Positions 2,495 through 51,564 of a stretch of 64,000 nucleotides of DNA are shown piece by piece. Each line of letters opens with the position of its first letter. Position 1 is the stretch's first letter. A program made the position numbers and the translations under genes. Source of the stretch: Eledone cirrhosa (taxonomy: Eukaryota). The stretch covers positions 21,514,001-21,578,000 of the forward strand of contig OZ024742.1 in the NCBI GenBank assembly GCA_964016885.1. The letters run 5' to 3'. Under the pieces are notes generated by a model, which was not told where the DNA came from, made no database searches, and was given only the letters and a program-made list of their open reading frames with translations.

Positions 2495-2527
2495 ACCCTT
2501 TATCACTTTCCACGTTTCTCATCCAAC

Positions 2528-5500
2528 ATGGCCGTACTTGGAATAGGCAGTATAAATGAACGTGGCCTAGGTCATCTTGGAAGCAAGGTCACCTGCTCAA
2601 CGACCTCAGGTCACTAAACAGAGAGGTGGTGGCCATCAGTGAGATCAGAATCTCCGAAACACGAGCCTTCGCACCGATCTTCGGCGGCTACGATGTATAC
2701 GCATCTTCCAGCCATCCAGGATCGGAGAGGCTTGGATCTCGCCATACGGGCCATCTTCCTGGATCCAGAAGGTAATTCGGTGGTGCAGGACGTGACCGGC
2801 AGCGAAGGCAATGCTTTCAGGCTACTAGCCGTCTATGCCCCAACTGGAGCAGGATGGCCAGATTTCTTCAGACGTCTAGAGATCTTTCTTGGAACGTCCC
2901 GCTCTTTAGTGTTAGTGGGCGACTGGAACGGCATCTTGGATGCACGCTGGGATTGTGTGGGGCTAGTGGATAGGGGAGCAGGGTGCAAGAGCCTCACCAA
3001 CCTGCTCAGACGTTTTGAACTGTCTGACAGGTATCGACTGGATCACCTGAATGTGCCAAAGTGGACTTGGACAAACCGCATCGGATCATCCAGATCGTAT
3101 CTAGATAGGGTATTCTGCAGAGAACTAGATAAGGCTAGTATAAGTTGTCCACAATTTAAAATAGTCGACTACACAGACCACAAATTTGTGATCTGTGAGA
3201 TCGACATAGACTAACTTCATAGACGAGGACCTGGTTACTGGAAGCTGAACGCTTCTTTCCCGGCGTGCAAAGCCTACAGAGACCGGATTAGCGTATTAGT
3301 TAAGCGGGTTTTATTATTAGTTAAGCGGGTTTTATTATTAGTTAAGCGGGAATTAAAGTAGAGTCGATTAGGTTTAGTAAAGGACTAGTGATAGAGGAAA
3401 ATAGAATAGAGGGAGAGCTAGTCAGAAAGCTAGAAGAGGCGTTTAGGACAGGCATCGCAACCGACGTGCTTGCGGCGAGATTGGCACTCTACCAATTCTT
3501 CAACGCAAAACACGAATGCTGCGTTGTCAGAGCTAGAGCGCGTGCTCTGAAACACGAGGGGACGAAAGCTGTCCAATGGGCCCGGGTGGCAGAGGCGCGT
3601 TGTGGCAACAAAGCCACATTTCGGTCTTTATCTGACCAAAACGGGCGCGTGTTGCTCTAACCCGAGCAGATGTGTAAGGCTTTTCAGCAAAACTTTGCTG
3701 AACTGTTCGGGAGCAGCGGCGGGCCGGATCGGGGTATGCATTTCAGTGCATACCTCAATGGACTGTTTCGACTCTCGAAGACCGCATCACAGTGTTGCTA
3801 AAAGCCAATAAAAGCCGGTGAAATACGGGAAGCGATGGCTAACTGAACGAAGGGTAAATCGCCAGGTTTGTATGGTCTGCCCTACGAACTTTATGCATTT
3901 ATGTCAGACTTGTTCGGTGACCTTGGCAGACGTCTACTACAACTGGCAGCAGAACGGGAGTATTCCCAGTTTTGTGAGCCGGGGAGTGGTGGCGCTGCTG
4001 AGAAAAGAGGGATGTTATCGATAACTTCAGGTCCATAACCCTGCTAAATGCGGAGTTCAAGATTTTGGCCAAGGTGTTAGCAACGAGGTTGGTGCTTGTC
4101 GTCGGAGTTCTGGTGGGAGAGGCGCAGATATTCGCCATTCTGGACAGATCCATACACGACAATTTCCACCCATGCGATAGATCGTAGTGAGGGTGTTTAA
4201 GGAACCTGGCACGGGTGGGGCCCTGATCAACTTGGATCAATCCAAAGCATTCGATAGGGTCGACCATCGGTACTTGGAGGCGGTCCTCGAGGCAGCCGGT
4301 TTCGGGCCTGTTTTCAGGAGTTGGATCGCTGCAATGTACAGCGACATCTGCTCAGTTGTGAAGGCGAACGGTCACCTGTCGCAGCCGTTCAGCATCATGT
4401 GCTCAGTTCGCCAGGGTTGTCCCCTGTCGTCCCTCTTGTACATATTGTCTCTCGAGCCGTTACTGCACAAACTGGGGGCGATGAGGGGTGTCCCACGCGA
4501 ACTAGGATGCGGGAAATCCGAATCGGCTTACGCCGACGATGTCACCGTGGTGGTGTCGACCACCAGACACGTCCAGATGCTCGGCACTGCTCTCAAGTAA
4601 TACGAAGCTGTGACAGGAGCAAAGATAAACCACGAAAAGTCGGTGGGCTTGCAGCTCGGCACCTGGAGAGGCATGACCATGCCGTCCAACTGCGTCGTCG
4701 GGCGTTGGACGGACGGACGGTTAAATTTCTCGGGGTCTGGTTCGGACCGGACCTCCAGATGGATAAAAACTGGAGCGAGGTGACGAGCAGGGTGGCCTCC
4801 CTCATCCAGAAATGAGCCGAGAGGAAGCTGTCCTTGAAAGGCCGGACGGAGGTCGCGAATGCGTACATCACATCCGTCATCTGCTACTGCCTCACCGTTG
4901 CCCCTTGCTCCGGCCCACCTCTCACCAAAATGGAGCGCCTCCTCTTCCGCTTTTTGTGGAGGGACGCGCTCGCATGGTCAGACGAACCATCTGCTGTCAA
5001 CACCCGTTGCGTGGAGGACTGGGCATGTCACGGCTGATGATGCGCAAATATACGCTGAGGCTGCGACATCTCTGGTGCTTCCTTGACGGTGAACAGGTGT
5101 GGTCGCCGTACGCCAGGCACGTTTTCCCACAGCTCGTCTCCTTGATAGAGCTGCAGTCCTGGGGCAGGAAAAGACCGAGGGATAGCGCTTGGAAACTGGA
5201 ATGTCTCTAGGCACTCATCGCCCTCTGCCAGCTGGGCACCAATATCAGTGGAACATCCACCTCGGCGTTCTATAGAGGACTAGTGGAGGGGAAGCGCGAC
5301 TATGTTCTTAGAGAGATCCTAGGCATCGAAGAAGATCAGCTGTTTGCTCTCTTCCGGAGAACTTTCAGCCCAGGGCCTATGGATAACTTCCAAAAGTCCC
5401 TGGCCTGGCAGTGTTACCGGGGAGCGCTGCCGGTTCGAGATGAGCTCTACAGGCACGGAAGTGCCGTCAGCCGAGCCTGTCCGAGATGCGCGCAAAGCGA

Positions 5501-5857
5501 CGAAACCGTCGTGCACGCACTCGTTCAGTGCCCGAGCATTGCTGACTTGTGGAGCTATGTCTAACAGTTGCTGTCGCGTGTAGGATTGATCCGGTTATCG
5601 ACTGAGTCGATTGTGCAGATGGTCTCGCCGTCTTCCTTCGAGGAGGAAGGGCAGACGGTTTTCATCAGCCTGGTGGCCATGGCGAAAGAGATTGTGTGGT
5701 GGACAAGGTTGAAAGGGTTAAATACAGATAATTCCTCTTCGGCGAATCCCTAATTAACTTTTTCAAGTTTCACTTGAATAGGAAAATCAGGGTGGAGAGT
5801 GCTGCCTTCTAGCAAGTTTGTTGAAAGGTGGGTGAATGTAGCGAGAATGGTCCGAGC
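2528..5857 (+). pseudogene. Copy A ORF2 (APE endonuclease-RT-zinc finger), disrupted
   Basis: ORF fragments 2639-3214, 3388-3660, 4187-4600, 4812-5210, 5283-5564 and 5568-5753 match successive parts of the 1139-aa ORF2. Confidence 0.9.
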
Positions 5858-6083
5858 TGCCTAATTTCGATATCGAGTGAGTCAGTCGTCCGGGCATACT
5901 AATATTTAGGTATCAGCCGTACTAAGAGTGAGAAATGAAATTTCGTTTCATTCCTTTCCATTTATCGTTTTCGGTATGCCCGGCCGACTAACTCACTCGA
6001 TATGCAAATTGGGCTGCTCAGCCGTTAATATGCATAAGGAAAGTATATACTTTCAGACGTTCAATCATCTGACAGAAAGGTAT

Positions 6084-14776: not shown

Positions 14777-14837
14777 AGTATGTATCTTTTTGGAAAATTT
14801 AGTGCTAAAGTATAAAAACTAATGATAACATCAATAG

Positions 14838-15326: not shown

Positions 15327-15500
15327 GTGGGTTGGCAGTATCGATAGAGGGTCGGACCCCATGCTTTGCAGCATGGAGTTACGGCCCTTTATTGCCTGAG
15401 TTCAAATACCGCCGAGGTTAACTTTGCCTTTCATCCTTACGGGGTCGATAAAATAAAGTATCAGTAATGTGCCAAACGTAGAAACAATTATTATTATTAT
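15327..15500 (+). mobile_element. tRNA/Nin-core SINE ending in (ATT)n
   Basis: Same consensus as other copies; (ATT)n tail 15487-15500 abuts Tx1 copy B. Confidence 0.85.
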
Positions 15501-16912
15501 AAGAATTGGGACGAGGTAACGAGCAGAGTAGCCTGTCTCATCCATAAATGGGCTGCGAGGAAGCTATCGCTGAAAGGTCGCGCGGAGGGGGCGAATGCAT
15601 ACATCGCATCCGTCATCTACTATCGCCTGACCGTCGTGTCTTTCCCCCGTCCACGCCTCGTCAAGTTGGAACGGCTCCTCTTCAAATTATTGAGAAGAGG
15701 ACAAGTTCTGTTGGTGAGGCGGTCCATCTACTGCCAGCACCCTCTACGCGGAGGCCTGGGCATGCCGTGGCTAATGATGCGCAGATATGCGCTGAGGCTG
15801 AGACATCTCCAGATATTCTGCCTGAACGGTGAACAGGTGTGGTCGCCGTTTATTAGACGGGCCCTTCCGCAGCTCTTTTTTTTACTGAGCTGCAGTCCTA
15901 AGTCAAGAAGAGACCAAGACTGGGTGACTGGCACCTGGAATGTTGCCAGGCACTTGATGCCCTCTACCTAGCGGGCAATGCGATCAGTTGAACTTCCACT
16001 CTCGAGTTCTATACAGGATTCGTGGTAGGCAAGTGCGAAGACGCACTCGGAGAGGCTTTAGGCCTTGACGAAGTCGAACTGACCAGTCTGTTCCGGGGAA
16101 CTTTCGAGCCGGGAACGATGGACAATTTCCAGAAATCCCTCGCTTTGCACTGCTACCGGGGGGCACTGCCGGTTCGTGATTAACTCTACAGGCACGGAAG
16201 TGCTGTAAGACGGACCTGCCCAAGATGCGCATTGAGCGACGAAACCGTTCTGCAAGCACTTGTCCAATGTCCGTGTATTACTGACTTGTGGGGTCATGTC
16301 GAACAGCTACTGTCGAGTGTATAACGGATCCGGCTATCGGCCGAGTCCATAGTAAATAACGAGCCGCCGCCTTCCTTTGGACAGGAAGAACAGGCAATGT
16401 TCCTGTATCTGGTGGCAGTTGAGAAAGAGGTTGTATGGTGGACCAGATTGAAAGGACTGAAGACAGACATTCATCTCTTCGACCAATCCCTCATCAACAG
16501 TTTCAAGTTTCACCTGGAAAGGAAGGTAAGTGTGGCGAGAAAAGTCCTGCTCCCAAGTACATTTGCTAAAAGGTGGGTGAATGTGGCGAGAATGGCCCGT
16601 GTGAATTGGCCTACTCTATCCATCGCATATAGGCTAGCTAACTTGAGGAGAGGGGTTCGAACCCTGGGTACCCTAGAAGCGCAGGGTGGTTCAGGATTGG
16701 TGGGGTACCTGAATCACCCTAGGGTCGTCCACCCCCGATAGGGGAATTTATTTATTTGTTATATTTATACATAGTTAATTTTATATTTGTATATCTTCAT
16801 TGTTAAATTAGTCTTGCCATTGTGCACATTTACTCGACCTTATTGTAAACCCCCACTGTCTCTGTCTTTATATTTTCCCCTACATTTCGTCCCTTGTGGC
16901 CAATAAATGAAA

Positions 16913-16943
<31 letters not shown>
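15501..16943 (+). mobile_element. 5'-truncated Tx1-like element, copy B (diverged subfamily, different 3'UTR)
   Basis: ORF2 C-terminal homology (CQHPLRGGLGMPWLMMRR, VWWTRLKGLKT), AATAAA, (ATT)n tail 16915-16943. Confidence 0.9.
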
Positions 16944-16945
<2 letters not shown>

Positions 16946-17315
16946 TTTGAGTCTCCGTCATTGATGTTATTTAACTGGAAAGTTTGTTGAAATGAATATC
17001 AAGCCGCTACCAGCAGCCTCAGATATTCAGGTCGTATCGGAGTGTTCTTGATGTTCCCAGCAAGCATGCCTTTTGAAGTGTTCCAAAAAGCGGGGCTGGA
17101 CTAATTTTCTTTAACCATCCTTTGAAACTCTGAGATAGTACCTAGTGCGCCTATGACAATCGGCAAGACTCTGACATGGCAGTAACAAATCCTTTTTACC
17201 TCCAACTTTAAGTCCTGGTATCGATTAATTCTCTCCCTCTCCTTTTCTTGCACTCTCGTGTCAAATGAGCAGGCTACATCTACAATCAGGCAAGATCTTT
17301 TTTCCTTGTCCAAAA
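16944..17315 (-). mobile_element. 3' fragment of an R4/Dong-like LINE with restriction-like endonuclease
   Basis: VLDKEKRSCLIVDVACSFDTRV...KE.E..NRYQDL...LPIVIGALG, later LQKACLLGT; ends in (TAA)n on the minus strand. Confidence 0.8.
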
Positions 17316-20153
17316 CCATCACCAACAAGAACAAGTGAAAGAGTGGCGTTGGTACCCCTCCCCGACCTGACAGAATCGGGCATGGAGTGTGATGTGGGAG
17401 ACGGATGGCAAAAGGTCGCAAGAAGGCACAAACGCAGAAGCAGCGCATCGTCGCCTTCGAAAAGGGAGGGAAGAAATGAAAAAAGGGTAAAGGCTACTGC
17501 AAAGTGACTTACAACAGCAACACCACCAACACCATCACCACCCACACTAATACCACCATCACCACAGGCGGCAACCCCACCGCCTACAACAACAACAACA
17601 TCTTCAACACCACCACCACAAGCACCAACATCGCAAAAACAACAACAAAACACACACACCCAGCAACAACGACAAGAAAATAGCAGAACCACACCCCACC
17701 CCAGAAAAAGAAATGCACAGCAATAAATACACACAACAAGAAACTAATGACTTACATAATTGAACACACAGACATTTCACAGCACGACTACATAATACCA
17801 GCACCAATCAAAACACCAACGAACATAAGACTGGTGAGAATAGTACAGAAACAATACACAAACATTAAAATAAAATTCGAACAGATGCCAGACTTGTTCG
17901 GAGGCCTCTTGGCGGACGTCTACTGCAACTGGCAACAGAAGGGGAGAATTCCCAGCTCTGTGAGCCGAGGAGCTGTGGCACTGCTGAGAAAGGATCCGAA
18001 CAAGGGGGATAACAAAGATAATTTCAGGCCCATAACTCTGCTAAACACAGAGTTCAAGATTTTGGCCAAGCTGATAGAAAAGAGGTTGGCGCTTGTCGTT
18101 AGTGGTCTGGTGGGAGAGGCGCAGACGTGCGCCATTCCCGACAGATCCATTCACGACAACCTCCACCTCATGCGATACATCGTAGAGAGGGTAGCTAGGG
18201 AACCTGTCACAGGTGGGTCCTTGATCAATTTAGATCAGTTGAAAATTTTCGATAGGGTGGACCATCGTTACCTAGCGGCAGTCCTGAGGGCGGCCCGTCT
18301 TCAGAGGCTGGATCGCTGCCATGCACAGCGACATCTGCTCTGTGGTGAGAGTGAACGGTCACCTTTCGGAACCGTTCAACATCATGCGCTCGGTCCGCCA
18401 AGGATGTCCCCTCTCGTCCCTCTTGTACGTATTGACTCTCGAGCCATTACTGCACAAACTGGAGACGTTGAGGGGGATCCCGCGCGAACTAGGATGCGAA
18501 AGATCTGTGTCAGCATATGCGGACGATGTCACCGTAGGGGTGTCGAACGCCAAACACATCGAGGCGATCAGCACTACTCTAAGAGAATACGAAGCGGTGA
18601 CAGGAGCAATGATAACCAGGAAAAGTCAGTGGGCCTGCAGCTCGGCACCTGGAGAGGCAAGTCTATGCCGTCCAACAGCGTCATCGGGCGCTGGACGGAC
18701 GGACAATTTAAATTTCTCGGGGTCTGGTTCGGTCCGGATCTCCAGACGGACGAGGTGACGAGCAGGGTGGCTTCTCTCACCCAGAAATGGGCCGAGAGGA
18801 AACTAACCCTGAAAGGTCGAGCGGAGGTGGCTAACGCGTATATCACGTCCGTCATCTACTACCGCCTGACCGTCGTACCTTGTCCTAAGCCCCGCCTGAC
18901 TGCGCTGGAGCGTTTGCTCTTTCGCTTTTTGTGGAAGGGACGCGCTCCGATGGTCAGGCGGTCCATCTGCTGTCAACACCCGCTACGTGGAGGGCTGTGA
19001 ATGCCGTGGCTGATGATGCGCAGACACGCGCTCAGGCTACGACATCTCCACCTCTTCCTCGACGGTGATCAGGTGTGGTCTCCTTTTGCTAGACGCGTCT
19101 TTCGCCAGCTCGTCTCTTTGACGGAGCTGCAGTCCTGGGTCAAGCGAAGACCGAGAGGGAGCGCTTGGAGACTTGAATGTCTTCAGGCGCGCATAGCCCT
19201 CGACCAATCGGGCAATGAGATCGGTGGAAACTCCACCTTGGCGTTCTATAGAGGATTAGTGGAGGGAAAGAGCGACGACGTACTTGGGGAAACACTAGGC
19301 GTCGACGAAAATCAACTAGCCAATCTCTTCGGAAGAACTTTCGGGCCTGGGCCTATGGACAACTTCCAGAAATCCCTGGCCGGGCAGTGCTACCAAGGAG
19401 CTTTGCCAGTTCGGGATAAACTCTACAGGCATGGAGGTGCCGTCAGCCGGGCATGCCCGAGATGCGCGCAGGGCGACGAAACCGTCCTGCACGCACTCGT
19501 CCAGTGTCCGAGCATTGCTGACTTGTGGGTTTATGTCGAACACCTGCTGTCGCGTTTAGGACGGATCCGGCTATCAGCTGAGTCCATCGTGAGGATTGCC
19601 CCGCCCTCTTCCTTTAGCCGGGAAAGGCAAGCAGTTTTTATCTGTCTGGTGGCCATGGCGAAATAGATAGTATGGTGGACACGTTTGAAAGGGCTGAAGA
19701 CGAGCACTTACCTCTTCGGTGATGCCCTGATTAACTTTTTCAAATTTCATTTGAAAAAGAAAATCAGGGTAGAAATGGAAGTACTCTCTTCCCAGCATTT
19801 TGTTGAAAGATAGGTGAGGGAGGCAAGAATGGCCCGAGTGAATGGGCCTACTCTGAGTATGTGTCTGTAAATTAAAGGTGGAAAACTGGGAGAGGGCACT
19901 TGTCCTGGTGGTCAGGGTCACTGTGGCTTTTTAATGGGCTTTCTCCACGAATGTCCTTCGGAAGTCTCCCCCCTATTGTGGAATGTTTTCATTGTTCTAT
20001 TATTACATCCTCTGTTTCTCGTTTTATACACGCAGAAATGCCCATTTGTACCGCCCTGTATTGTCCTGTACTGTCCTTAATGTCTACTTTATGTAGACAC
20101 TTGTGGTTAATAAAGAAAGCATTATTATTATTTTTATTATTATTATTATTATT
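17313..20153 (+). mobile_element. Tx1-like copy C: 5'-truncated, with an internal deletion joining the ORF1 C-terminus to the RT region
   Basis: 17313-17878 matches D ORF1 (~21730-22286), then jumps to D ~23903; 3'UTR and (ATT)n tail 20121-20153. Confidence 0.92.
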
Positions 20154-20366
20154 GAATGCCATGGTTGACGGAGGCTCGGCTCTGTAAGGTATAGTAATTT
20201 TTAACCGTTAAAACAATTGTAAATTGTTTAAAACTTGAACCAAATTGTTGATAAAGACACCCTCCTCCTCGTGAGAGGGGTCTTTCTGTCCGTTATTTGG
20301 CCCTTCGGGGTTAAATAACCAGTTATTGGGGTTTTGTACCCAAAATTTCATTTTAAACAAAAAAAC

Positions 20367-22462
20367 ATGGCTACGAAAAAGAAATTTCATACGTCACTCC
20401 CACTCATTCCGTCTTCTTCTTCCTCAATCATCACTACAGCAGAGAGAAGATTGTCTCTCTCCCTCCCTTCTTTAAATGTGTCTCTCTCCCTCCCTTCTCT
20501 TTCGCAAGCGACGAAAGAAAAGAAAAGTCTCGTGCAAAGCGTGCAAGGTTTCTCCACGACGACGACGACAGCGACGAAACAGGTGTGCGGGAAATACGAA
20601 AACCCAGTTCATTCGTCTGACGTCAGGAATAATAGCAGTAGCAGCCGTAATAACAACAGCAACAGTGACAATGAAAACAACAGTAGCAGCCGCAACAGCA
20701 TCACCAGCAGCATAAACAACAACAGCATTAGCAGCAGCAACACCAACAACAACCACAGCAACAGCGGCGGAGGCAGTAGTCGTAGTACCTGCAGCAACAA
20801 CAAAAGTACCAGCAGCTCTGACGACAACAACAACAGCAGAGAAAAACCAATCTCATTTGCAGGTATTGCGAAAAACTTGGAAACAATCCTCATAACAAAT
20901 GAGGAATTAGAGGAAGCGAAGAAGATGGTGACAAAGAACGGACACCGAGCAATCTGCAAGGCAGCGAAAAATTTTTTCGAAACCCAAGAGCACCGTACGG
21001 TCACGTACCGTACAGTAAGTACAAAATCCCGTAGGGTGGAAAGAGCCACATAGGCCCAAATACAAAAAGCCTTGGGGTCTGTGTGGCAGAGGAAAACGCA
21101 CATCACCCGAGGCAAAAAATACGCCACCGTAGACGTACTTTTTGCCACACCCCAGGAGGCAAAGGCCCAATCAGTAGTGACCCTAAGGAGCGAGGAAATG
21201 GTGTTGGTGCCCTCCTACTGCGGGCAAAAAATTGTGAGGGTCAAACTGACCCACGTCCCCCCGGAATGACCCCTTCTTGGCTGGCCGCGTCTGTCCTCGT
21301 CGGAATCGAGGACAAAACAACTGTACTGCAAGTACAGAAAAAAGTAAGAGAAGATTGGGTCGGCTCCTCCATTGAGATGCTAATCCAAACCAACCAGGAG
21401 TGCATCGAAGCTATCCCGGATGTGATAGACTTCGATAACGGCACTCAACTGCCCATAAGTGTTGAGGGCAAACGCCCGAAATGCTTTCGCTGTGGATCGA
21501 AGACTCACCTCAGGGCCTTCTGCAACGAGAAGACCCTGAGAAAGGAGAAAACCCCCCTCCTTCCGAATCCGGCTCCACGGCTACCAGCAACAGGACAAGC
21601 GGCAACCAGGAACGATAGGTCCGTGGCACCCATACCCACTCCACGGAAATCAAAGACAGCAGCAGCAGTGGAAATATTAACAACAACAACAGCAATACCA
21701 AATGCAGCTGCAACAGAGACTCCAGTGCAAACATCACCAACAACAACAAGTGAAAGAGTGGAGCTGGTACCCCTCCCCGACCTTACAGAATCAGACATGG
21801 AGTGTGAGGTGGGAGAGGGATGGCAAAAGGTCGCAAGAAGGCACAAACGCAGAAGCAGCGCATCGTCGCCTTTGAAAAGGGAGGAAAGAAATGAGAAAAG
21901 GGTAAATTCTACTGCAAAGAGACCCACAGCAGCAACACCACCAACACCATCACCACCCACACCAGCACCACCATCACCAACGGCGACAACCCCACCGCCA
22001 ACAACACCTTCAACACCACCACCACAAGCACCAACATCGCAAACACAACAACAAAACACACACACCCAGCAACAACGACAAGAAAATAGCAGAACCACAC
22101 CCCACCCCCAGAAAAACAAATGCACGGCAATAAACACACACAACAAGAAACTAATGACTTACATAATTGAACACACAGACATTTCACAACAGGACTACAT
22201 AATACCAGCACCAATCAAAACGCCAACTAACATAAGACTGCTAAATATAGCCCAGAAACAATACACAAACATTAAAACGAAATTCCCCAACGCAGTTGGT
22301 GATTTCAGGGACCTAGGAGGAACCATCAATCGAAGAGTATATTCAGACATTCTCTTAGAAGAGCCGACGACCAGCCGAAGGGACGATTCAACGGTCCCTT
22401 CACCAGACGATCAAGTGAAAAGGGATGTAAAAACCATCCCTCCTCTACCAAAACTACGGTAA
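20367..22462 (+). pseudogene. Copy D ORF1 (RRM-like region, one CCHC knuckle, Thr/Pro linker, conserved C-terminal domain); one nonsense codon and one frameshift
   Basis: TAG at 21051 where homologues have Glu; frameshift near 21260; CFRCGSKTHLRAFC. Confidence 0.88.
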
Positions 22463-22497
22463 GTGGTCTTTCCCATCTTTTCCACTCTATTTTAAAC

Positions 22498-25400
22498 ATG
22501 ACCTCACTCAGAATAGGCAGCATAAATGCGCGTGGCTTGGGGTCGTCATGGAAGCAGGGTCACCTGCTCAACGACCTCAGGTCACTAAACATAGATGTAG
22601 TGGCCATCAGCGAGACCAGAATCTCCGAAGCACGGGCCTTCGCACCGATCTTCGGCGGCTACGATGTGTACGCATCTCCCAGCCGTCCTGGATCGGGTGG
22701 AGGAGTTGCTGTGCTTTTTCGGAGAGGTTTGGATCTCGCCATACGGGCCATCTTCCTGAACCCAGAGGGTAAGCTGGTGGTGCTGGACGTGACCAGCGGA
22801 GACGGGCAAGCTTTCAGGCTAGTGGCCGTCTATGCCCCGACAGGAGCAGGGCGGCCTGATTTCTTCCGGCGTCTGGAGACCTTTCTTGGAACGTCCCGCT
22901 CTTTAGTGTTAGTGGGCGACTGGAACGGGATCTTAGATGCACGCTGGGACTGTGTGGGATTAGCGGATAGGGGTGGAGGGTGCAAGAGCCTCACCAACCT
23001 GCTCAGGCGTTTTGAACTGTCTGACAGGTACCGATTGGATTTCCCGAATGTGCCAATGTGGACTTGGACAAACTGCATAGGGTCATCCAGATCATATCTA
23101 GATAGAGTATTTTGTAGGGAAATAGATAGGTCTAGCATAGGCTGTCCACAATTCAAGATAGTCAGCTACACGGACCACAAATTCGTGATCTGTGTGCTTG
23201 ACCTAGATAGGCTTCATAGACGAGGACCCGGCTACTGGAAGCTAAACGCGTCCTTACCAGCGCGCAAGGCCTACAGAGACCGGATTAGCGAACTAGTTAA
23301 GCGGGCGTTGACGGGGGCCATCGTCAACAACAAGTGGTGGTTTGCTCTGAAAAGAGCGATTAGAATAGAATCGATTAGGTTTAGTAAGGCTTTAGCAATA
23401 GAGAAAAATAGAGCAGAGGGAGAACTAGTTAGAAAATTAGACGAGGCGCTTAGCAAAGGCATTGCGACCGACGTGCTTGCGGCGAAATTGGCCCTTGACC
23501 AATTCTTCAATGCAAAGCACGAAGGCTGCGTTGTCAGAGCTAGGGTGCGTGCTCTCAGACACGAGGGGACGAAAGCCGTTCAATGGGCCCGAGTGGCGGA
23601 GGCGCGTCGTGGCAACAAAGCCACGATCCGGTCTTTGGTGGACCACGACGGGCGCATGCTACTCGATCCCGGGCAAATGTGTGAAGCTTTTCAGCGACAC
23701 TTCGCTCAGCTGTTCGGGGGCAGCGGGGGGCCGGGTAGAGGGATGGACTTTAGTGTCTACCTCGACGGACTGCCGCGGCTCTCGGCCACTGAGGCGAAGT
23801 GTTGCGAAAAGCCGATAACAGCCGCTGAAGTAAGGGAGGCAATGACTGGCTGCACAAGGGGTAAATCGCCTGGTTTGTATGGTCTGCCCTATGAACTTTA
23901 CGTACAGATGCCAGACTTGTTCGGAGGCCTCTTGGCGGACGTCTACTGCAACTGGCAACAGAACGGGAGAATTTCCAGTTCTGTGAGCCGAGGAGCGGTG
24001 GCACTGCTGAGAAAGGATCCGAACAAGGGGGATAACATAGACAATTTCCGGCCCATAACTCTGCTAAACACAGAGTTTAAGATTTTGGCCAAGGTGCTAG
24101 CAAAGAGGTTGGCGCTTGTCGTTGGTGGTCTGGTGGGAGAGGCGCAGACATGCGCCATTCCCGACAGATCCATCCACGACAACCTCCACCTCATGCGATA
24201 CATCGTAGAGAGGGTAGCTAGGGAACCTGGCACGGGTGGGTCCTTGATCAATTTAGATCAGTCGAAAGCTTTCGATAGGGTCGACCATCGTTACCTAGCG
24301 GCAGTCCTGAGGGCGGCTGGCTTTGGGCCCGTCTTCAGAGGCTGGATCGCTGCCATGCACAGCGACATCTGCTCTGTGGTGAGAGTGAACGGTCACCTGT
24401 CGGAACCGTTCAACATCATGCGCTCGGTCCGCCAAGGATGTCCCCTCTCGTCCCTCTTGTACGTATTGACGCTCGAGCCATTACTGCACAAACTGGAGAC
24501 GTTGAGGGGAGTCCCGCGCGAACTAGGATGCGGAAGATCCGTGTCAGCATATGCGGACGATGTCACCGTAGTGGTGTCGAACGCCAAACACATCGAGGCG
24601 ATCGGCACTACACTAAGAGAATACGAAGCGGTGACAGGAGCAATGATCAACCAGGAAAAGTCAGTGGGCCTGCAGCTCGGCACCTGGAGAGGCAGGTCCA
24701 TGCCGTCCAACAGCGTCGTCGGGCGCTGGACGGACGGACCGGTTAAATTGCTAGGGGTCTGGTTCGGTCCGGACCTCCAGACGGACAAAAACTGGGACGA
24801 GGTGACGAGCAGGGTGGCTTCTCTCACCCAGAAATGGGCGGAGAGGAAGCTATCCCTGAAAGGTCGAGCGGAGGTGGCTAACGCGTACATCGCGTCTGTC
24901 ATCTGCTACCGCCTAACCGTCGTACCTTGTCCTAAGCCTCGCCTGACTGCGCTGGAGCGTTTGCTCTTTCGCTTTTTGTGGAAGGGACGTGCTCCGATGG
25001 TCAGGCGGTCCATCTGTTGTCAACACCCGCTACGTGGAGGGCTGGGCATGCCGTGGCTGATGATGCGCAGGCACGCGCTCAGGCTACGACATCTCCACCT
25101 CTTCCTCGACGGTGATCAGGTGTGGTCGCCGTTTGCTAGACGCGTTTTTCCCCAGCTCGTTTCCTTGACGGAGCTGCAGTCCTGGGTCAAGCGAAGACCG
25201 AGAGGGAGCGCCTGGAGACTGGAATGTCTTCAGGCGCTCACAGCCCTCGACCAATCGGGCAATGTGATCGGTGGAAACTCCACCTCGGCGTTCTATAGAG
25301 GATTAGTGGAGGGGAAGAGCGACGACGTACTTGGGGAAACTCTAGGCGTCGACGAAAATCAACTAGCCAATCTCTTCGGAAGAACTTTCGGGCCAGGGCC

Positions 25401-25917
25401 TATGGACAACTTCCAGAAATCTCTGGCCTGGCAGTGCTACCGAGGATCCTTGCCAGTTCGGGATAAACTCTACAGGCATGGAGGTGCCGTCAGCCGGGCA
25501 TGTCCGAGAAGCGCGCAGGGCGACGAAACCGTACTGCACGCACTCGTCCAGTGTCCGAAAATTGCTGACTTGTGGGTTTATGTCGAACACCTGCTGTCGC
25601 GTTTAGGACGGATCCGGCTATCATCTGAGTCCATCGTGAGGATTGCCCCGCCCTCCTCCTTTAGCCGGGAAGGGCAGGCAGTTTTTATCTGCCTGGTGGC
25701 CATGGTGAAAGAGATAGTATGGTGGACACGTTTGAAAGGGCTGAAGACGAGCACTTACCTCTTCGGTGATGCTCTGATTGACTTTTTCAAATTTCATTTG
25801 AAAAGGAAAATCAGAGTAGAGAGGGAAGTGCTCTCTTCCCAGCATTTTGTTGAAAGATGGGTGAGAGAAGCAAGAATGGCCCGAGTGAATGGGCCTACTC
25901 TGAGTATATATCTGTAA
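22498..25917 (+). CDS. Copy D ORF2: APE endonuclease, reverse transcriptase, C-terminal zinc finger, 1139 aa
   Basis: SINARGL, ISET, GDWN, TDHK (EN); NFRPITLLN, DQSKAFDRV, RQGCPLS, YADD (RT). Has PGLYG and CPRS substitutions at motifs that read PGLDG and CPRC in copy E. Confidence 0.96.
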   Translation: MTSLRIGSINARGLGSSWKQGHLLNDLRSLNIDVVAISETRISEARAFAPIFGGYDVYASPSRPGSGGGVAVLFRRGLDLAIRAIFLNPEGKLVVLDVTSGDGQAFRLVAVYAPTGAGRPDFFRRLETFLGTSRSLVLVGDWNGILDARWDCVGLADRGGGCKSLTNLLRRFELSDRYRLDFPNVPMWTWTNCIGSSRSYLDRVFCREIDRSSIGCPQFKIVSYTDHKFVICVLDLDRLHRRGPGYWKLNASLPARKAYRDRISELVKRALTGAIVNNKWWFALKRAIRIESIRFSKALAIEKNRAEGELVRKLDEALSKGIATDVLAAKLALDQFFNAKHEGCVVRARVRALRHEGTKAVQWARVAEARRGNKATIRSLVDHDGRMLLDPGQMCEAFQRHFAQLFGGSGGPGRGMDFSVYLDGLPRLSATEAKCCEKPITAAEVREAMTGCTRGKSPGLYGLPYELYVQMPDLFGGLLADVYCNWQQNGRISSSVSRGAVALLRKDPNKGDNIDNFRPITLLNTEFKILAKVLAKRLALVVGGLVGEAQTCAIPDRSIHDNLHLMRYIVERVAREPGTGGSLINLDQSKAFDRVDHRYLAAVLRAAGFGPVFRGWIAAMHSDICSVVRVNGHLSEPFNIMRSVRQGCPLSSLLYVLTLEPLLHKLETLRGVPRELGCGRSVSAYADDVTVVVSNAKHIEAIGTTLREYEAVTGAMINQEKSVGLQLGTWRGRSMPSNSVVGRWTDGPVKLLGVWFGPDLQTDKNWDEVTSRVASLTQKWAERKLSLKGRAEVANAYIASVICYRLTVVPCPKPRLTALERLLFRFLWKGRAPMVRRSICCQHPLRGGLGMPWLMMRRHALRLRHLHLFLDGDQVWSPFARRVFPQLVSLTELQSWVKRRPRGSAWRLECLQALTALDQSGNVIGGNSTSAFYRGLVEGKSDDVLGETLGVDENQLANLFGRTFGPGPMDNFQKSLAWQCYRGSLPVRDKLYRHGGAVSRACPRSAQGDETVLHALVQCPKIADLWVYVEHLLSRLGRIRLSSESIVRIAPPSSFSREGQAVFICLVAMVKEIVWWTRLKGLKTSTYLFGDALIDFFKFHLKRKIRVEREVLSSQHFVERWVREARMARVNGPTLSIYL

Positions 25918-26176
25918 ATTAAAGGTGGAAAACTGGGAGAGGGCACTTGCCTTGGTGGTCAGGGTCATTGTGGCTTTTTACTGGGCTTTCACCACAAATG
26001 TCCCTCCGAAGTCTCCCCCCTATTGGGGAATTTTTCATTGTTATTTTCATTGTTATTTTTGTTACATCCTCTGTTTTTGTTTTTTACACGCAGAAATGCC
26101 CATTTGTACCGTCCTGCATTGTCCTGCACTGTCCTTAATGTCTACTTTATGTAAACCCTTGTGGTTAATAAAGAAA

Positions 26177-26220
<44 letters not shown>

Positions 26221-26429
26221 GGCGACCTACGTAGGAAATCGTATTATCGTGAGCTCCGCAAAGGTTTGTTATTTCCGTTTGTTTAAAAATTGCCATTTAT
26301 GGAAAATTTTATTGTAAACTGTTTATAAGCACACATACATTGTTTTCCGAAAAGGACACCCAAAAAGATTGGGGCCTTGTGCCCAAAATTTTAACTTTTA
26401 TTATTATCCAAAAATTTCTTTGAAAAAAA

Positions 26430-28416
26430 ATGGCTAATTCCCCTCTGCACGAAGCAGCTGAAAGCCTTCCTCACAAAATAACACCTCACACCGACACCAC
26501 CATTGTAAATGTTACTACGTTTGCCAACACAAAAAAAAATATAAGCAGTAGCAATATTTTAAATTTGTCTCAGGCAGACATTCATTTCCCGCCATTACCA
26601 ATGACTGCAGGTGTTAAACCCTCCACCACCACCACCACCGCGACAACCACCACCACCACCACCACCGCGACAACAGAAACAAAAGAAGAAAAAAATAAAT
26701 TAACTCGTGACGTCGAAATGAAATCAAGCAAAATGGACTCTTCCCCACCAAAGACAACTGACGTCACCACCAGCACAACTGAAAATAAAATTAATATTAA
26801 CGATAGCAACAACAACAACAATGACATTATAAAACCGACCCTCAGTTTCGCCATCGTAGCAAAACAATTCGAAGCGTTCACGGTAACTCAAGAAGATTTA
26901 GAAAATGCCAAACAAATGGTAAAGAAAGATGGGTACAGGGTCAGCCTCACCCCCCCACCTAATAAAATGGAGCATCGGCGCCTGTGCACCGTGTCGTATA
27001 GAACAATAAATGTAAAATTGCGCCGAGTGGAACGGGCATCCGAGTCCCAAATCCAAAAAGCTTTGGGACATGTGTGGGCAAGAAAAACCCACATCAGACG
27101 TGGGCAAAAGTATGGAACCGTGGATGTGTTCTTTGAAACACCAGAGGAGGCTAGAGAACACTCCATGGCCCCATTAAAAAGTGACGACTTCACACTCGTC
27201 CCAAGCTATTGTGGCCAGAGACTCGTAAAGATCAGGGTGACCCACGTTCCACCGGCCATCGAAATTCCCTGGCTAATAGCGGCTGTCATCGCCGGCATCG
27301 AGGCCAACACGAAAATAATAACAATAGCAAAAGAAAAGCAGGAAAACTGGTCCGGATCTGGGATGGAGCTCCTGATCCAAGCGGACCAAAAAAGCATTGA
27401 GGAGATCCCAGAGGTAATAGACCTCACTGACGGCAGCCACCTCACGGTAATTGTCGAGGGCAGAAGACCTAGGTGTGTCGTTTGTGGTGAAGGAACCCAC
27501 CTAAGGGCTTTCTGCCCTCAGGCTAAAAGGTTGAGGCCACCTCTCCTACCCACCCCAGTGACACAACCATCAACACCACCAGAAGCAGAGATGCCAGCAA
27601 CAACTGTAGCAGCAACAACAGAAGCAACTATAACAGCAACAACCCCAGCAACAGTAGCAAAAACCAACACCACTACCACCACCAGCAAAACGAACACCAC
27701 CACCACCCAACGCTTCAGAACAAGCACCAGCGCCTACACCATCCACCACACCACAACCAAAACTAACGGCTGTGGAGGATTTTCCACTCCCCGGCCTATC
27801 ACAACTGGAGACAGATTGTGACGACGAGGAGTGGGAAACGATATCCGGAAAAAAAAAAAGAAACCAAAAAAGAAAAAATTCTCTTCCTTCCCCCTCCAAA
27901 AACAAAATACAGAGGGAAACAAATAAACTAAGAAACAAAAAAGTTAGGACAGATATGCCACCATCCACACCATCATCACCAACCCCATCAACCCAAACAC
28001 CAACACCATCACCATCATTATCCCCAGCACCACTATCACCTACACCACAAAAGTCACCAAAATACGAAACAGAAACAAACCCACAACAAACGCAAACAAA
28101 ACAAAACAACCAAAACGATACACACTACACAGCATTAAATTTGAACAACAAGCAATTATTACACTGCATCCAACACAACACCAGCATCACAGAAAAAGAC
28201 TACACAACAACCCCAAAATTCACACCACCTCCACACATACAAATCACTCGCATCACACAGAAAACGTACATGACACTAAAACAAAAATTCCCCAAAGACA
28301 TCGGAGACTTCCGACAAGCACTCTCCAGGAGGATTTATAAGGACATCCTTCCTGAGGAGGCCACAAGCAGTGAAAAGGATGGAAAAGCCGTCCTTCCCCT
28401 ACGAGAAGTAAGGTAA
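26430..28416 (+). CDS. Copy E ORF1 (CCHC knuckle protein), with a single frameshift near 27705 in the Thr-rich linker
   Basis: ORFs 26430-27821 and 27772-28416; CVVCGEGTHLRAFC. The frameshift may be a mutation or a sequencing error. Confidence 0.85.
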
Positions 28417-28450
28417 GTGGTCTTTCCCATCTTTTCCACTCCTTTTCAAC

Positions 28451-31400
28451 ATGACCTCACTCAGAATAGGCAGCATAAATGCGCGTGGCTTGGGGTCGTC
28501 ATGGAAGCAGGGTCACCTGCTCAACGACCTCAGGTCACTAAACATAGATGTAGTGGCCATCAGCGAGACCAGAATCTCCGAAGCACAGGCTTTCGCACCG
28601 ATCTTCGGCGGCTACGATGTGTACGCATCTCCCAGCCGTCCGGGATCGGGGGGAGGAGTTGCTGTGCTTTTGCGGAGAGGTTTGGATCTTGCCATACGGG
28701 CCATCTTCCTGGACCCAGAAGGTAAGTTGGTGGTGCTGGACGTGACCAGCGGAGACGGGCAAGCTTTCAGGTTAGTGGCCGTCTATGCCCCGACAGGAGC
28801 AGGGCGGCCTGATTTCTTCCGGCGTCTGGAGACCTTTCTTGGAACGTCCCGCTCTTTAGTGTTAGTGGGCGACTGGAACGGGATCTTAGATGCACGCTGG
28901 GATTGTGTGGGATTAGTGGATAGGGAAGGAGGGTGCAAGAGTCTCACCAACCTGCTCAGACGTTTTGAACTGTCTGACAGGTACCGAATGGATTTCCCGA
29001 ATGTACGCATGTGGACTTGGACAAATCGCATAGGGTCATCCAGATCATATCTAGATAGAGTATTTTGTAGGGAAATAGATAGGTCTAGCATAGGCTGTCC
29101 ACAATTCAAGATAGTCAGCTACACGGACCACAAATTCGTGATCTGTGTGCTTGACTTAGATAGGCTTCATAGACGAGGACCCGGCTACTGGAAGTTAAAC
29201 GCGTCCTTACCAGCGCGCAAGGCCTACAGAGACCGGATTAGCGAACTAGTTAAGCGGGCGTTGACGGGGGCCATCGTCAACAACAAGTGGTGGTTTGCTC
29301 TGAAAAGAGCAATTAGAATAGAGTCCATTAAGTTTAGTAAGACTTTAGCAATAGAGAAAAATAGAGCAGAGGGAGAATTAGTTAGAAAATTAGATGAGGC
29401 GCTTAGCAAAGGCATCGCGACCGACGTGCTTGCGGCGAAATTGGCCCTTGACCAATTCTTCAATGCAAAGCACGAAGGCTGCGTTGTCAGAGCTAGGGTG
29501 CGTGCTCTCAGACACGAGGGGACGAAAGCCGTTCAATGGGCCCGAGTGGCGGAGGCGCGTCGTGGCAACAAAGCCACGATCCGGTCTTTGGTGGACCACG
29601 ACGGGCGCATGCTACTCGATCCCGGGCAAATGTGTGAAGCTTTTCAGCAACACTTCGCTCAACTGTTCGGGGACAGTGGCGGGCCGGATCGAGGGATGGA
29701 CTTTAGTGTCTACCTCGACGGACTGCCGCGGCTTTCGGCCACTGAGGCGGAGTGTTGCGAAAAGCCGATAACAACCGCTGAAGTACGGGATGCAATGACT
29801 AGTTGCACAAGGGGTAAATCGCCTGGTTTGGATGGTCTGCCCTATGAACTTTACGTACAAATGCCAAACTTGTTCGGAGGCCTCTTGGCGGACGTCTACT
29901 GCAACTGGCAACAGAATGGGAGAATTCCCAGCTCTGTGAGCCGAGGAGCGGTGGCGCTGCTGAGAAAGGATCCGAACAAGGGGGATAACATAGATAATTT
30001 TAGGCCCATAACTCTGCTAAACACAGAGTTCAAGATTTTGGCCAAGGTGCTAGCAAAGAGGTTGGCGCTTGTCGTTGGTGGTCTGGTGGGAGAGGCACAG
30101 ACATGCGCCATTCCCGACAGATCCATCCACGACAACCTCCACCTCATGCGATACATCGTAGAGAGGGTAGCTAGGGAACCTGGCACGGGTGGGTCTTTGA
30201 TCAATTTAGATCAGTCGAAAGCCTTCGATAGGGTCGACCATCGTTACCTAGCGGCAGTCCTGAGGGCGGCTGGCTTTGGGCCCGTCTTCAGAGGCTGGAT
30301 CGCTGCCATGCACAGCGACATCTGCTCTGTAGTGAGAGTGAACGGTCACCTTTCGGAACCGTTCAACATCATGCGCTCGGTCCGCCAAGGATGTCCCCTC
30401 TCGTCCCTATTGTACGTATTGACTCTCGAGCCATTACTGCACAAACTGGAGACGTTGAGGGGGGTCCCGCGCGAACTAGGATGCGGAAGATCCGTGTCAG
30501 CATATGCCGACGATGTCACCGTAGTGGTGTCGAACGCCAAACACATCGAGGCGATCGGCACTACACTAAGAGAATACGAAGCGGTGACAGGAGCAATGAT
30601 CAACCAGGAAAAGTCAGTGGGCCTGCAGCTCGGCACCTGGAGAGGCAGGTCCATGCCGTCCAACAGCGTCGTCGGGCGCTGGACGGACGGACCGGTTAAA
30701 TTGCTAGGGGTCTGGTTCGGTCCAGACCTCCAGACGGACAAAAACTGGGACGAGGTGACGAGCAGGGTGGCTTCTCTCACCCAGAAATGGGCCGAGAGGA
30801 AGCTATCCCTGAAAGGTCGAGCGGAGGTGGCGAATGCGTACATCGCATCCGTCATCTACTACCGCCTGACCGTCGTACCTTGTCCTAAGCCCCGCCTGAC
30901 TGCGCTGGAGCGTTTGCTCTTTCGCTTCTTGTGGAAGGGACGCGCTCCGATGGTCAGGCGGTCCATCTGCTGTCAACACCCGCTACGTGGAGGGCTGGGC
31001 ATGCCGTGGCTGATGATGTGCAGACACGCGCTCAGGCTACGACATCTCCACCTCTTCCTCGACGGTGATCAGGTGTGGTCGCCGTTTGCAAGACACGTTT
31101 TTCCCCAGCTCGTCTCCTTGACGGAGCTGCAGTCCTGGGTCAAGCGAAGACCGAGAGGGAGCGCTTGGAGACTGGAATGTCTTCAGGCGCTCACAGCCCT
31201 CGACCAATCGGGCAATGTGATCGGTGGAAACTCCACCTTGGCGTTCTATAGGGGATTAGTGGAGGGGAAGAGCGACGACGTACTTGGAGAAACTCTAGGC
31301 GTCGACGAAAATCAACTAGCCAATCTCTTCGGAAGGACTTTCGGGCCGGGGCCTATGGACAACTTCCAGAAATCCCTGGCCTGGCAGTGCTACCGAGGAG

Positions 31401-31870
31401 CTTTGCCAGTTCGGGATAAACTCTACAGGCATGGAGGTGCCGTCAGCCGGACATGTCCGAGATGCGCGCAGGGCGACGAAACCGTCCTGCACGCACTCGT
31501 CCAGTGTCCGAGCATTGCTGACTTGTGGGTTTATGTCGAACACCTGCTGTCACGTGTAGGACGGATCCAGCTATCAGCTGAGTCCATCGTGAGGATTGCC
31601 CCGCCCCCTTCCTTTAGCCTGGAAGGGCAGGCAGTTTTTATCTGTCTGGTGGCCATGGCGAAAGAGATAGTATGGTGGACACGTTTGAAAGGGCTGAAGA
31701 CGAGCACTTACCTCTTCGGTGATGCCCTGATTAACTTTTTCAAATTTCATTTGAAAAGGAAAATCAGGGTAGAGAGGGAAGTGCTCTCTTCCCAGCATTT
31801 TGTTGAAAGATGGGTGAGAGAAGCAAGTATGGCCCGAATGAATGGGCCTTCTCTGAGTATGTGTCTGTAA
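28451..31870 (+). CDS. Copy E ORF2: APE endonuclease, reverse transcriptase, zinc finger, 1139 aa, apparently intact
   Basis: All EN and RT motifs present, including SPGLDGLP, YADD and CPRCAQGDETVLHALVQC. Confidence 0.97.
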   Translation: MTSLRIGSINARGLGSSWKQGHLLNDLRSLNIDVVAISETRISEAQAFAPIFGGYDVYASPSRPGSGGGVAVLLRRGLDLAIRAIFLDPEGKLVVLDVTSGDGQAFRLVAVYAPTGAGRPDFFRRLETFLGTSRSLVLVGDWNGILDARWDCVGLVDREGGCKSLTNLLRRFELSDRYRMDFPNVRMWTWTNRIGSSRSYLDRVFCREIDRSSIGCPQFKIVSYTDHKFVICVLDLDRLHRRGPGYWKLNASLPARKAYRDRISELVKRALTGAIVNNKWWFALKRAIRIESIKFSKTLAIEKNRAEGELVRKLDEALSKGIATDVLAAKLALDQFFNAKHEGCVVRARVRALRHEGTKAVQWARVAEARRGNKATIRSLVDHDGRMLLDPGQMCEAFQQHFAQLFGDSGGPDRGMDFSVYLDGLPRLSATEAECCEKPITTAEVRDAMTSCTRGKSPGLDGLPYELYVQMPNLFGGLLADVYCNWQQNGRIPSSVSRGAVALLRKDPNKGDNIDNFRPITLLNTEFKILAKVLAKRLALVVGGLVGEAQTCAIPDRSIHDNLHLMRYIVERVAREPGTGGSLINLDQSKAFDRVDHRYLAAVLRAAGFGPVFRGWIAAMHSDICSVVRVNGHLSEPFNIMRSVRQGCPLSSLLYVLTLEPLLHKLETLRGVPRELGCGRSVSAYADDVTVVVSNAKHIEAIGTTLREYEAVTGAMINQEKSVGLQLGTWRGRSMPSNSVVGRWTDGPVKLLGVWFGPDLQTDKNWDEVTSRVASLTQKWAERKLSLKGRAEVANAYIASVIYYRLTVVPCPKPRLTALERLLFRFLWKGRAPMVRRSICCQHPLRGGLGMPWLMMCRHALRLRHLHLFLDGDQVWSPFARHVFPQLVSLTELQSWVKRRPRGSAWRLECLQALTALDQSGNVIGGNSTLAFYRGLVEGKSDDVLGETLGVDENQLANLFGRTFGPGPMDNFQKSLAWQCYRGALPVRDKLYRHGGAVSRTCPRCAQGDETVLHALVQCPSIADLWVYVEHLLSRVGRIQLSAESIVRIAPPPSFSLEGQAVFICLVAMAKEIVWWTRLKGLKTSTYLFGDALINFFKFHLKRKIRVEREVLSSQHFVERWVREASMARMNGPSLSMCL

Positions 31871-32112
31871 ATTAAAGGTGGAAAACTGGGAGAGGGCACT
31901 TGCCCTGGTGGTCAGGGCCACTGTGGTCTTTTAATGGGCTTTCTCCACAAATGTCCCTTGGAAGTCTCCCCCCTATTGGGGAATTTTTCTTTGTTATTTT
32001 ATTTCAACCTCTGTTTTTTTACACGCAGAAATGCCCATTTGTGCCGTCCTGTATTGTCCTGTACTGTCCTTAATGTCTACTTTATGTGAACCCTTGTGGT
32101 TAATAAAGAAAA

Positions 32113-32168
<56 letters not shown>

Positions 32169-32169
<1 letters not shown>

Positions 32170-32395
32170 GGTGGTCGATTGGCAGTATCGGTAAAGCGTT
32201 GGACAATATGCTTCATGTCATACAGTTACACTCCTATATGATCTGAGTTCAAATCCCGGCGAGGTTAACTTTGCCTTTCATCCTTACGGGGTCGATAAAA
32301 TAAAGTACCAGTAATTCACTGGGGCCGATTTAACCGACTTTCTTCTCCCCAAAAATTTCTGGCCTTGTGCCTTTATAAGAAACCATTATTATTAT
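32169..32395 (+). mobile_element. tRNA/Nin-core SINE (long variant) directly after the copy E tail
   Basis: A and B boxes, core, 3' CCTTGTGCCTTTATAAGAAACCATTATTATT. Confidence 0.88.
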
Positions 32396-41838: not shown

Positions 41839-41956
41839 AGAAACATTGCTTCATTTTTACATATCTAAGCATTAGTAAAATAACTAATAATTTCAAAAGT
41901 AATTTTTCAATTCCAATTGTTATGAACAGCAAAACATTAATAATAATTTTGTTCTA

Positions 41957-50355: not shown

Positions 50356-51564
<1,209 letters not shown>

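Follow-up and report, generated by a model that had tools for sequence, protein, structure and literature searches.

A 64,000-nucleotide window of the Eledone cirrhosa genome (contig OZ024742.1, positions 21,514,001 to 21,578,000; positions below are counted from the first letter of this window) holds five related copies of a long interspersed nuclear element (LINE), called A to E, all on the + strand and set in AT-rich, microsatellite-laden surroundings. The adjacent elements D and E are copies of two multi-copy subfamilies, which combine deeply diverged cassettes of 5' untranslated region (5'UTR) and first open reading frame (ORF1) with nearly the same ORF2 and 3'UTR. We are highly confident that recurrent recombination between elements, as such, lies behind this arrangement. 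LINE families are classified and dated by ORF2 and its reverse transcriptase (RT), and here one RT type hides several ORF1-promoter cassettes that are as different from one another as separate families. RT-based catalogues therefore miss most of this diversity, and a consensus would be a chimera. In addition, with tandem arrays of intact units it becomes possible to distinguish between the three proposed routes of L1 recombination, a distinction that dispersed mammalian copies do not permit. The elements and their parts are the following:

20154..26220, + strand: element D, full-length L1/Tx1-like LINE ending in (TTA)n and following immediately on the tail of copy C
20325..20355, + strand: D 5'UTR motif, its only alignable part, matching E at 26368-26400 (local score 35, 0/500 shuffles)
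20367..22462, + strand: D ORF1, with low-complexity N-terminus, RRM-RRM-CCHC core and C-terminal domain; broken
22377..22415, + strand: D ORF1 tail 1, A-like (34/39 to A), ending at the site of A's splice-donor motif; predicted hairpin
22416..22458, + strand: D ORF1 tail 2, E-like (29/39 to E); predicted hairpin
22458..22487, + strand: D junction, 30 nt identical to E, beginning GGTAAGT (5' splice-site consensus) and containing the ORF1 stop; high identity starts here
22498..25917, + strand: D ORF2, 1139 aa, with APE endonuclease, RT and zf-RVT; first Cys pair of the knuckle altered
25918..26180, + strand: D 3'UTR, with candidate splice acceptor (AG ends 26093) and AATAAA at 26167
26221..32168, + strand: element E, full-length, starting right after the (TTA)n tail of D; its own tail spans 32114-32168
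26430..28416, + strand: E ORF1, second type, with two RRM-like domains and CCHC; broken frame
28412..28441, + strand: E copy of the shared 30-nt junction, containing AG/GTAAGT
28451..31870, + strand: E ORF2, 1139 aa, intact APE-RT-zf
31871..32113, + strand: E 3'UTR, 92.9% to D, with candidate acceptor (AG ends 32028) and AATAAA at 32102
17314..20153, + strand: copy C, 5'-truncated, with the 3' half of a D-type ORF1 (91% to D), the remainder of ORF2, 3'UTR and (TTA)n
~850..5860, + strand: copy A, decayed, 5' end approximate, without 3'UTR or tail; third ORF1 variant
15499..16944, + strand: copy B, 5'-truncated more distant relative, 73-75% to the other copies

The contrast between the two halves of D and E is substantiated at both the protein and the synonymous level. 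An earlier reading of the letters alone (hereafter the sequence-only reading) had counted roughly 40 differences by eye between the two ORF2 proteins of 1139 residues, and the exact number is 40 (1099/1139 identical), with a synonymous divergence (dS) of 0.093, a nonsynonymous divergence (dN) of 0.016 and differences at 36 of 556 fourfold sites (6.5%). The ORF1 proteins are homologous, with two RRMs and a CCHC knuckle and ~52% amino acid identity, and they align in blocks only, as that reading had stated; the core blocks share 84/161 and 53/118 residues, and dS is saturated or at least 1.7 in all four blocks. The sliding-window comparison that it had called for (150-column windows, gaps counted) gives 41-65% identity upstream; identity is 91-100% in the window that begins at 22424 and in those that follow through ORF2. 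The announced abrupt onset of similarity at GGTAAG is hence confirmed as a step, albeit one preceded immediately upstream by a 44-nt shoulder of ~75% D-E identity (29/39). Likewise, the 5'UTRs are largely unalignable, as claimed, since only one motif of 33 columns just before ORF1 aligns (no shuffle of 500 reaches its score), but this shared motif makes them diverged homologues and not unrelated sequences.

Copy A, which had been singled out as a third ORF1 variant, is indeed one, its ORF1 core being 71.0% identical to that of D and 53.7% to that of E. Its ORF2 is 79-85% identical to those of D and E; in the 5' part, it stands at 82.9% to D and 82.6% to E, D and E being there 96.7% identical. 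The order of relatedness of A, D and E flips at the junction: A goes with D in ORF1 and falls outside D and E in ORF2. Copy C is D-type in ORF1, and its ORF2 fails to group with that of D (informative sites: 8 CD, 6 DE, 5 CE). Fourfold divergence between A and D is similar in ORF1 (16/42) and ORF2 (130/428), which would fit E, not D, as the recombinant. Host defence as the driver, a possibility raised by the sequence-only reading, is conjectural; whole-domain dN/dS gave no sign of positive selection on ORF1, and core dN lies well below dS. An explanation without any exchange, by faster ORF1 evolution or chimeric assembly, could invoke the low complexity and weaker constraint of ORF1 and the near-identical repeats of the window. 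It is hardly credible, because a faster protein rate cannot account for synonymous sites that are saturated in ORF1 and differ by 6.5% in ORF2; the flip in rank order of A, D and E, the independent contigs carrying both types to the junction and the recurrence of the pattern in a second host, both described below, also speak against it.

The possibility of an assembly artefact was addressed with other sequencing runs. The window stretch or part of it is contained in 20 of 24 listed runs, and four runs were compared over 20130-28460. A contig of 1412 nt in run X4 crosses D's junction (21114-22524). Run X5, from another organism, has a D-type contig (20973-22487) and an E-type contig (27954-28441), both of which end at the last base of the 30-mer shared exactly by D and E, as would be expected of two paths that converge in a 31-mer graph. 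Because D-type and E-type ORF1 sequences both reach the shared junction in contigs from other runs, the mis-assembly against which the sequence-only reading had cautioned is unlikely. At the listed ORF1 variant sites, run X1 yields up to 47 D-type and up to 67 E-type contigs, and run X8 yields 6-32 D-type and 1-3 E-type contigs at most sites, depth being no measure of copy number. Both ORF1 types look like multi-copy subfamilies, which implies that the exchange predates the insertions of D and E; they may also amplify differently between organisms, as far as X8 and X1 contigs over 26229-28460 can be compared without depth standing for copy number. In D, a stop (21051-21053) and a break in the frame near 21260 interrupt ORF1; in E, ORF1 has a frame break between ~27660 and ~27950. 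At D's stop, nearly all depth in 4/4 runs shows another letter, so that this break is private to copy D or to its assembly.

Related elements also come from a second host. Of the 41 loci found by scanning genome contigs, 39 belong to a single bacterial bin. In this bin, contigs C3-C19 of G001 (loci L055-L091 and L094-L127) comprise hundreds of kb with LINE arrays. The small contigs of the bin are likely co-binned animal DNA, that is, host contamination, as judged by microsatellites and flanks resembling short interspersed nuclear elements (SINEs); a comparison of the window's own SINEs with these flanks gave no clear match. The relatives share 41% amino acid identity in ORF2 with the window elements, and their ORF1 is homologous, with 24-29% identity in the core. 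Once stitched, 15 contigs present arrays of 2-10 units, 65 units in all, of which 52 have a full-length ORF2, 8 are broken and 5 are cut by contig ends; ORF1-only units were not found (0/64). The units are separated by family-specific spacers, as opposed to (TTA)n in the window. Elsewhere, the search of a 5.8-billion set with the ORF1 core gave 0/960 candidates, viral contigs gave 0/85 candidates, and the 54 matches among metagenome loci are all distant.

The second host repeats the discordance of D and E. In the 16 of 32 units that were tabulated, ORF2 is 92-100% identical while identity in mid-ORF1 goes down to 52%. For pairs on the same contig, dS in the ORF1 core was 2.57, saturated and 0.72, against 0.012, 0.003 and 0 in ORF2 (9 pairs examined, one yielding no ORF1 block). 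The trees of the two genes are in conflict: L075 and L077 go with L062 in ORF1 and with L074 and L076 in ORF2, and L071 likewise switches partners. When 14 representatives were submitted to approximately unbiased (AU) tests, the clades having been named once the trees were known, the clade of the other gene was rejected in 4/4 cases (p <=6e-5). The congruent ORF1 and ORF2 trees that would have argued against exchange are therefore not what is found, and the modular exchange of the 5'UTR-ORF1 cassette by recombination, proposed by the sequence-only reading, is upheld by incongruent distances in the window and conflicting trees in the second host. Its further proposition of a swap at a fixed junction is not supported, as the breakpoints in the second host are staggered and in register, at about -87, -137, -720 and -1250 nt relative to the ORF2 start, and none of them falls at the donor motif.

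Linkage was examined in 28 second-host units that have a single ORF2 type but fall into two ORF1 types. The minor allele occurs with both ORF1 types in 16/30 informative columns of ORF2 and 3'UTR, only the column nearest ORF1 is linked to the ORF1 type (12/12, p 0.0003), and 127/406 column pairs fail the four-gamete test. Furthermore, ORF2 variants do not sort by contig, with mean differences of 6.8 and 8.5 within contigs and 7.6 and 7.3 between them. The ORF2 of the second host thus behaves as a shared, recombining pool.

We propose that this pool is shared because a new copy landing at the tail of an old one pairs with the old ORF2 and replaces it, a route to which we give an even chance of being correct. 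The elements would insert at their own tails, that is, (TTA)n in the window and the family-specific spacers in the second host. As a consequence of this targeting, a nascent cDNA that stops inside ORF2 would lie next to an ORF2 that is 93-100% identical, to which it could be joined by strand annealing. The upstream 5'UTR-ORF1 would stay in place and acquire the younger ORF2-3'UTR. Replacement would extend in the 5' direction only to the limit of homology, GGTAAG in D and E and the conserved ORF1 C-terminus in the second host; the D/E step would fall at GGTAAG because long homology begins there. The ORF1 types would then persist as islands and drift to synonymous saturation. This route predicts an absence of contig structure and a decay of linkage away from ORF1, and both are seen. 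For mouse L1, this route, by way of an RNA/DNA heteroduplex at the insertion site, is the second of three listed by Sookdeo et al, 2013 (PMC3600994; this and the other papers given here by PMC number were available as excerpts, to which our statements refer).

Several points weigh against the tail-insertion route or narrow its basis. Across 8 bins of ORF2, dS between D and E ranges over 0.055-0.139 with no 3'-to-5' gradient. The decay of linkage from ORF1 depends on one linked column, and the four-gamete conflicts could partly reflect recurrent mutation or assembly error in repeats. The junction of E is bridged by no run contig under the 31-letter rule. In one second-host array, the same 5' truncation occurs twice in tandem, which indicates that DNA-level duplication or unequal exchange also acts. 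The doubled ORF1 tail of D, described below, is joined out of register, which replacement by homology does not account for. On the window side, the comparison consists of five copies and the run contigs. Finally, sequence alone cannot separate tail insertion from RT switching between RNAs or from ectopic conversion.

Homogenisation of ORF2 by DNA-level gene conversion and unequal crossing-over, tandem or ectopic, with ORF1 spared since ORF2 is the only long homology, is a rival explanation that we consider unlikely. It would be at home in long arrays of mostly intact units (52/65 with full ORF2), which lift the usual objection that the partners are dead copies (PMC3600994), and it is consistent with the tandemly duplicated truncation, with the staggered, in-register breakpoints and with the expansion of tandem transposable elements by unequal exchange (PMC5932611). 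Local concerted evolution, however, would have clustered ORF2 variants by contig, which is not the case, and the 114 positions at which the ORF2s of D and E differ are spread nearly evenly (longest identical run, p 0.033), which argues against a recent long conversion between these neighbours. The ORF2 conversion within this array that the sequence-only reading had offered as an option is not needed, since both ORF1 types are multi-copy and C does not group with D in ORF2.

A switch of the RT between two co-expressed element RNAs during target-primed reverse transcription, regardless of tandem position, would also yield staggered breakpoints in register and no contig structure, and it is favoured for most mouse L1 cases (PMC3600994). 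Such switching requires co-active families, a condition with which the multi-copy state of both ORF1 types in X1 agrees; it presumes co-expression, and it puts the tandem habit seen in both hosts to no use. We regard it as improbable here.

The end of ORF1 in D raises a separate question. D has two homologous ORF1 tails, first an A-like and then an E-like one, and quartet sites are 9:0:0 for (A, D1) versus (D2, E). The A-like tail stops exactly at A's AAG/GTAAGT (at 2488), and in E an AG precedes the point at which the E-like part sets in. This doubled tail would result if an A-type unit lying upstream had been spliced to an E-type unit lying downstream, a rather doubtful origin in our estimation; the data are also compatible with a duplication of the tail, one tail being lost later in A. 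Extended to the exchange as a whole, this idea supposes fixed-point swaps made by the splicing of read-through RNA, in which the donor at the ORF1 end of one element is joined to an element downstream of it. The continuation of D's A-like tail, from A's donor into E-like sequence after E's AG, and the conservation of the donor are in its favour, but the second-host breakpoints lie off the donor, none of 64 second-host ORF1 ends lacks an intact donor, both D and E keep GTAAGT at the main step, and the AG of E has no good pyrimidine tract. Moreover, duplication with later loss would also serve for the tail, and the fourfold divergence of A and D points to E as the recombinant. Splicing would account at most for D's doubled tail, and as the general source of exchange it is very unlikely.

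Each of the four ORF1 tails folds into a predicted hairpin of 7-10 bp (2445-2487, 22373-22458, 28369-28412), with z of -2.8 to -4.1 in four windows chosen after the hairpin was seen. Covariation is not significant (2 compensatory pairs in four sequences, 58/500 shuffles as high), nor is the hairpin significant in 3 second-host units; the predicted structure upstream of the donor is kept as a lead. In copy C, an internal deletion at 17878 was considered as a splice product and ruled out, since its ends are positioned away from splice sites.

The donor motif itself is widely conserved. A, D and E all have GGTAAGT where ORF1 ends, and in the second host it precedes 65/68 ORF2 starts, the three exceptions forming one other family with a TAATG stop-start overlap. 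Its chance occurrence in a 45-nt window is ~0.003, the units being related and hence amounting to few independent lineages. The ORF1 stop lies inside the motif in D and E, after it in A and before it in the second host; as the donor is kept wherever the stop lies, the stop codon does not explain its conservation. The motif was found before ORF2 in 0/27 distant loci (26 of the 54 metagenome loci and L092; 23-32% identity). L087 and contig C13 of G001 contain a related tandem family without the ORF1-end donor and with the TAATG overlap, hinting that donor and overlap may be two alternative ways of controlling ORF2.

It is plausible that an ORF1-only mRNA would be made by splicing from the ORF1-end donor to an acceptor in the 3'UTR. 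By a crude score, the pyrimidine-rich candidate acceptor of the 3'UTR ranks 2/67 in D, 3/64 in E and 3/39 in C, and the frame past it ends at the same codon, as TAA, TGA and TAG, respectively. In the second host, a second donor right after ORF2 is present in 51/59 units and a 3'UTR acceptor motif in 48/59. The second-host 5'UTRs also show donor-like and strong acceptor-like motifs (L064 at 3786, L055 at 3832, L081 at 340-418), and UTR introns are possible there. An ORF1-to-3'UTR splice joint was not seen among the 15 listed of 2763 joints in the runs, nor a spliced genomic copy among 64 second-host ORF1 ends, and the predicted spliced C-terminus is absent from the related proteins retrieved. 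Copia-type elements make a spliced subgenomic gag mRNA. By analogy with these, one might imagine interchangeable ancient 5'UTR-ORF1 cassettes on one recombining ORF2 pool, with ORF2 inside a facultative intron whose removal would give an ORF1-only mRNA and with mis-splicing into the next tandem unit founding chimeras like D; this combined scheme is speculative, and we would sooner expect it to fail than to hold. If it is true that the donor is used, this would explain in a simple manner how a bicistronic LINE can produce much more ORF1 protein than ORF2 protein.

As for the setting of the copies, the sequence-only reading had recognised D and E as adjacent full-length elements, and their head-to-tail order (20154-26220 and 26221-32168) bears it out; C, D and E follow one another, each starting directly behind the (TTA)n tail of the preceding copy. 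Among these few copies, TTA repeats stand on both sides of B, D and E, and neither at A nor on the 5' side of C. The flanks of B would be consistent with a (TTA)n target. One SINE family has many copies in the window with tails ending in TTA repeats (10006-10206, 14837-15055, 15327-15470, 32165-32390, and further 41643-41839, 46289-46436, 48076-48297 and 56033-56689); copy B sits in such a tail, and SINE tails may serve as landing sites for LINE copies. Tail-to-tail with B, at one TTA/TAA run, lies a 3' fragment of another LINE (16945-17448; - strand ORF 17101-17448) without Pfam match, whose motif we take to resemble a restriction-like endonuclease of the Dong/R4-like kind. A C-rich frame at 62631-64000, with a weak GIY-YIG match below the cut-off (E 0.074), resembles the 3' part of a Penelope-like element. 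A 310-bp tandem repeat at 50427-51513 and 58589-61485 (2.6 and 7.9 copies, 99%) has inverted terminal portions and AT-repeat ends, and these loci could be a non-autonomous DNA element carrying a minisatellite. A 272-bp inverted pair (99%) beside a 140-bp tandem repeat with 3.1 identical copies occupies 61437-62486, and repeats of 560-740 bp (92-95%), direct and inverted, lie at 39011-39572, 53641-55039 and 51826-53202. The window yielded no tRNA, and Rfam gave 0 matches in 6 sources.

By their structure, the elements are non-LTR retrotransposons of the L1 group (L1/Tx1). ORF2 contains the Pfam domains Exo_endo_phos, RVT_1 and zf-RVT only, with no RNase H domain detected; AATAAA followed by (TTA)n occurs in B, C, D and E, B and C are 5'-truncated, and long terminal repeats (LTRs) are absent. 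Compared with solved structures, ORF2 is closest to L1 ORF2p (E 1.6e-53, residues 5-855), the best R2 match being at 6e-21 among 15 matches, all of L1 or R2 types. The model of the E ORF1 core reaches a predicted local distance difference test (pLDDT) of 75, and its top Foldseek matches are tandem RRMs; zf-CCHC is present in 11/14 aligned ORF1 members, all from the second host, and the ORF1 atlas matches are CCHC/ZCCHC3-RBD clusters at 0.91-0.93. A 64%-identical fragment covering 5% of the query lies inside an Octopus sinensis gene model, and 13 recently active L1-Tx1 families are described in O. vulgaris (PMC13282606). A likeness to target-specific LINEs of the Tx1 clade such as Kibi and Koshi (PMC4494074) would lie in the APE-RT-zinc knuckle ORF2, closest to L1 among solved structures, and in a possible preference for microsatellite targets. 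Kibi and Koshi target (TC)n or (TTC)n, as opposed to the candidate target (TTA)n here, and ORF1 exchange is not mentioned for them in the excerpts of that paper.

The closest precedent for the exchange is that of mouse L1 Gf and Tf, for which several independent recombination events placed the 5'UTR-ORF1 of one lineage on the ORF2 of another, the breakpoints being close to the start of ORF2 (Sookdeo et al, 2013; PMC3600994). As in recombinant mouse L1, ORF1 and ORF2 trees are incongruent here and the breakpoint lies near the ORF1/ORF2 border; a whole-ORF1 swap is accordingly a known event, although the sequence-only reading had judged one at a fixed junction to be less usual. The mouse partners are only a few million years apart and dispersed (PMC3600994), whereas ORF1 is here synonymously saturated (~52% amino acid identity in the window, 58-91% in the second-host core) and the elements share a recombining ORF2 pool in head-to-tail arrays. 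A tree-like, constrained ORF2 with exchanged ORF1s bearing RRM and CCHC is also known from CR1/L2 elements, there through old transfers from one ORF1 type to another, deduced from family consensus sequences (Metcalfe and Casane, 2014; PMC4120745), in contrast to homologous ORF1s exchanged repeatedly and recently, as is visible in adjacent copies. Tandem non-LTR arrays arise in Drosophila by double insertion, head-to-tail at one target, with 5'-truncated members and later duplication (McGurk and Barbash, 2018; PMC5932611), and the telomeric arrays of Drosophila are likewise head-to-tail and include ORF1-only telomeric elements (PMC13534243). Unlike these, the arrays described here carry mixed ORF1 types on one ORF2, have 0/64 ORF1-only units and are not known to be telomeric or in rDNA. 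The excerpts of PMC5381506 contain no mention of 'splice', and the literature covered, which extends to neither Repbase Reports nor most subscription papers, describes neither a common ORF2 pool that carries ORF1 types at synonymous saturation nor a LINE with a conserved donor at the end of ORF1. The system is real and replicated, and it is an extreme form of known L1 recombination, of which the depth of divergence and the shared ORF2 pool look new.

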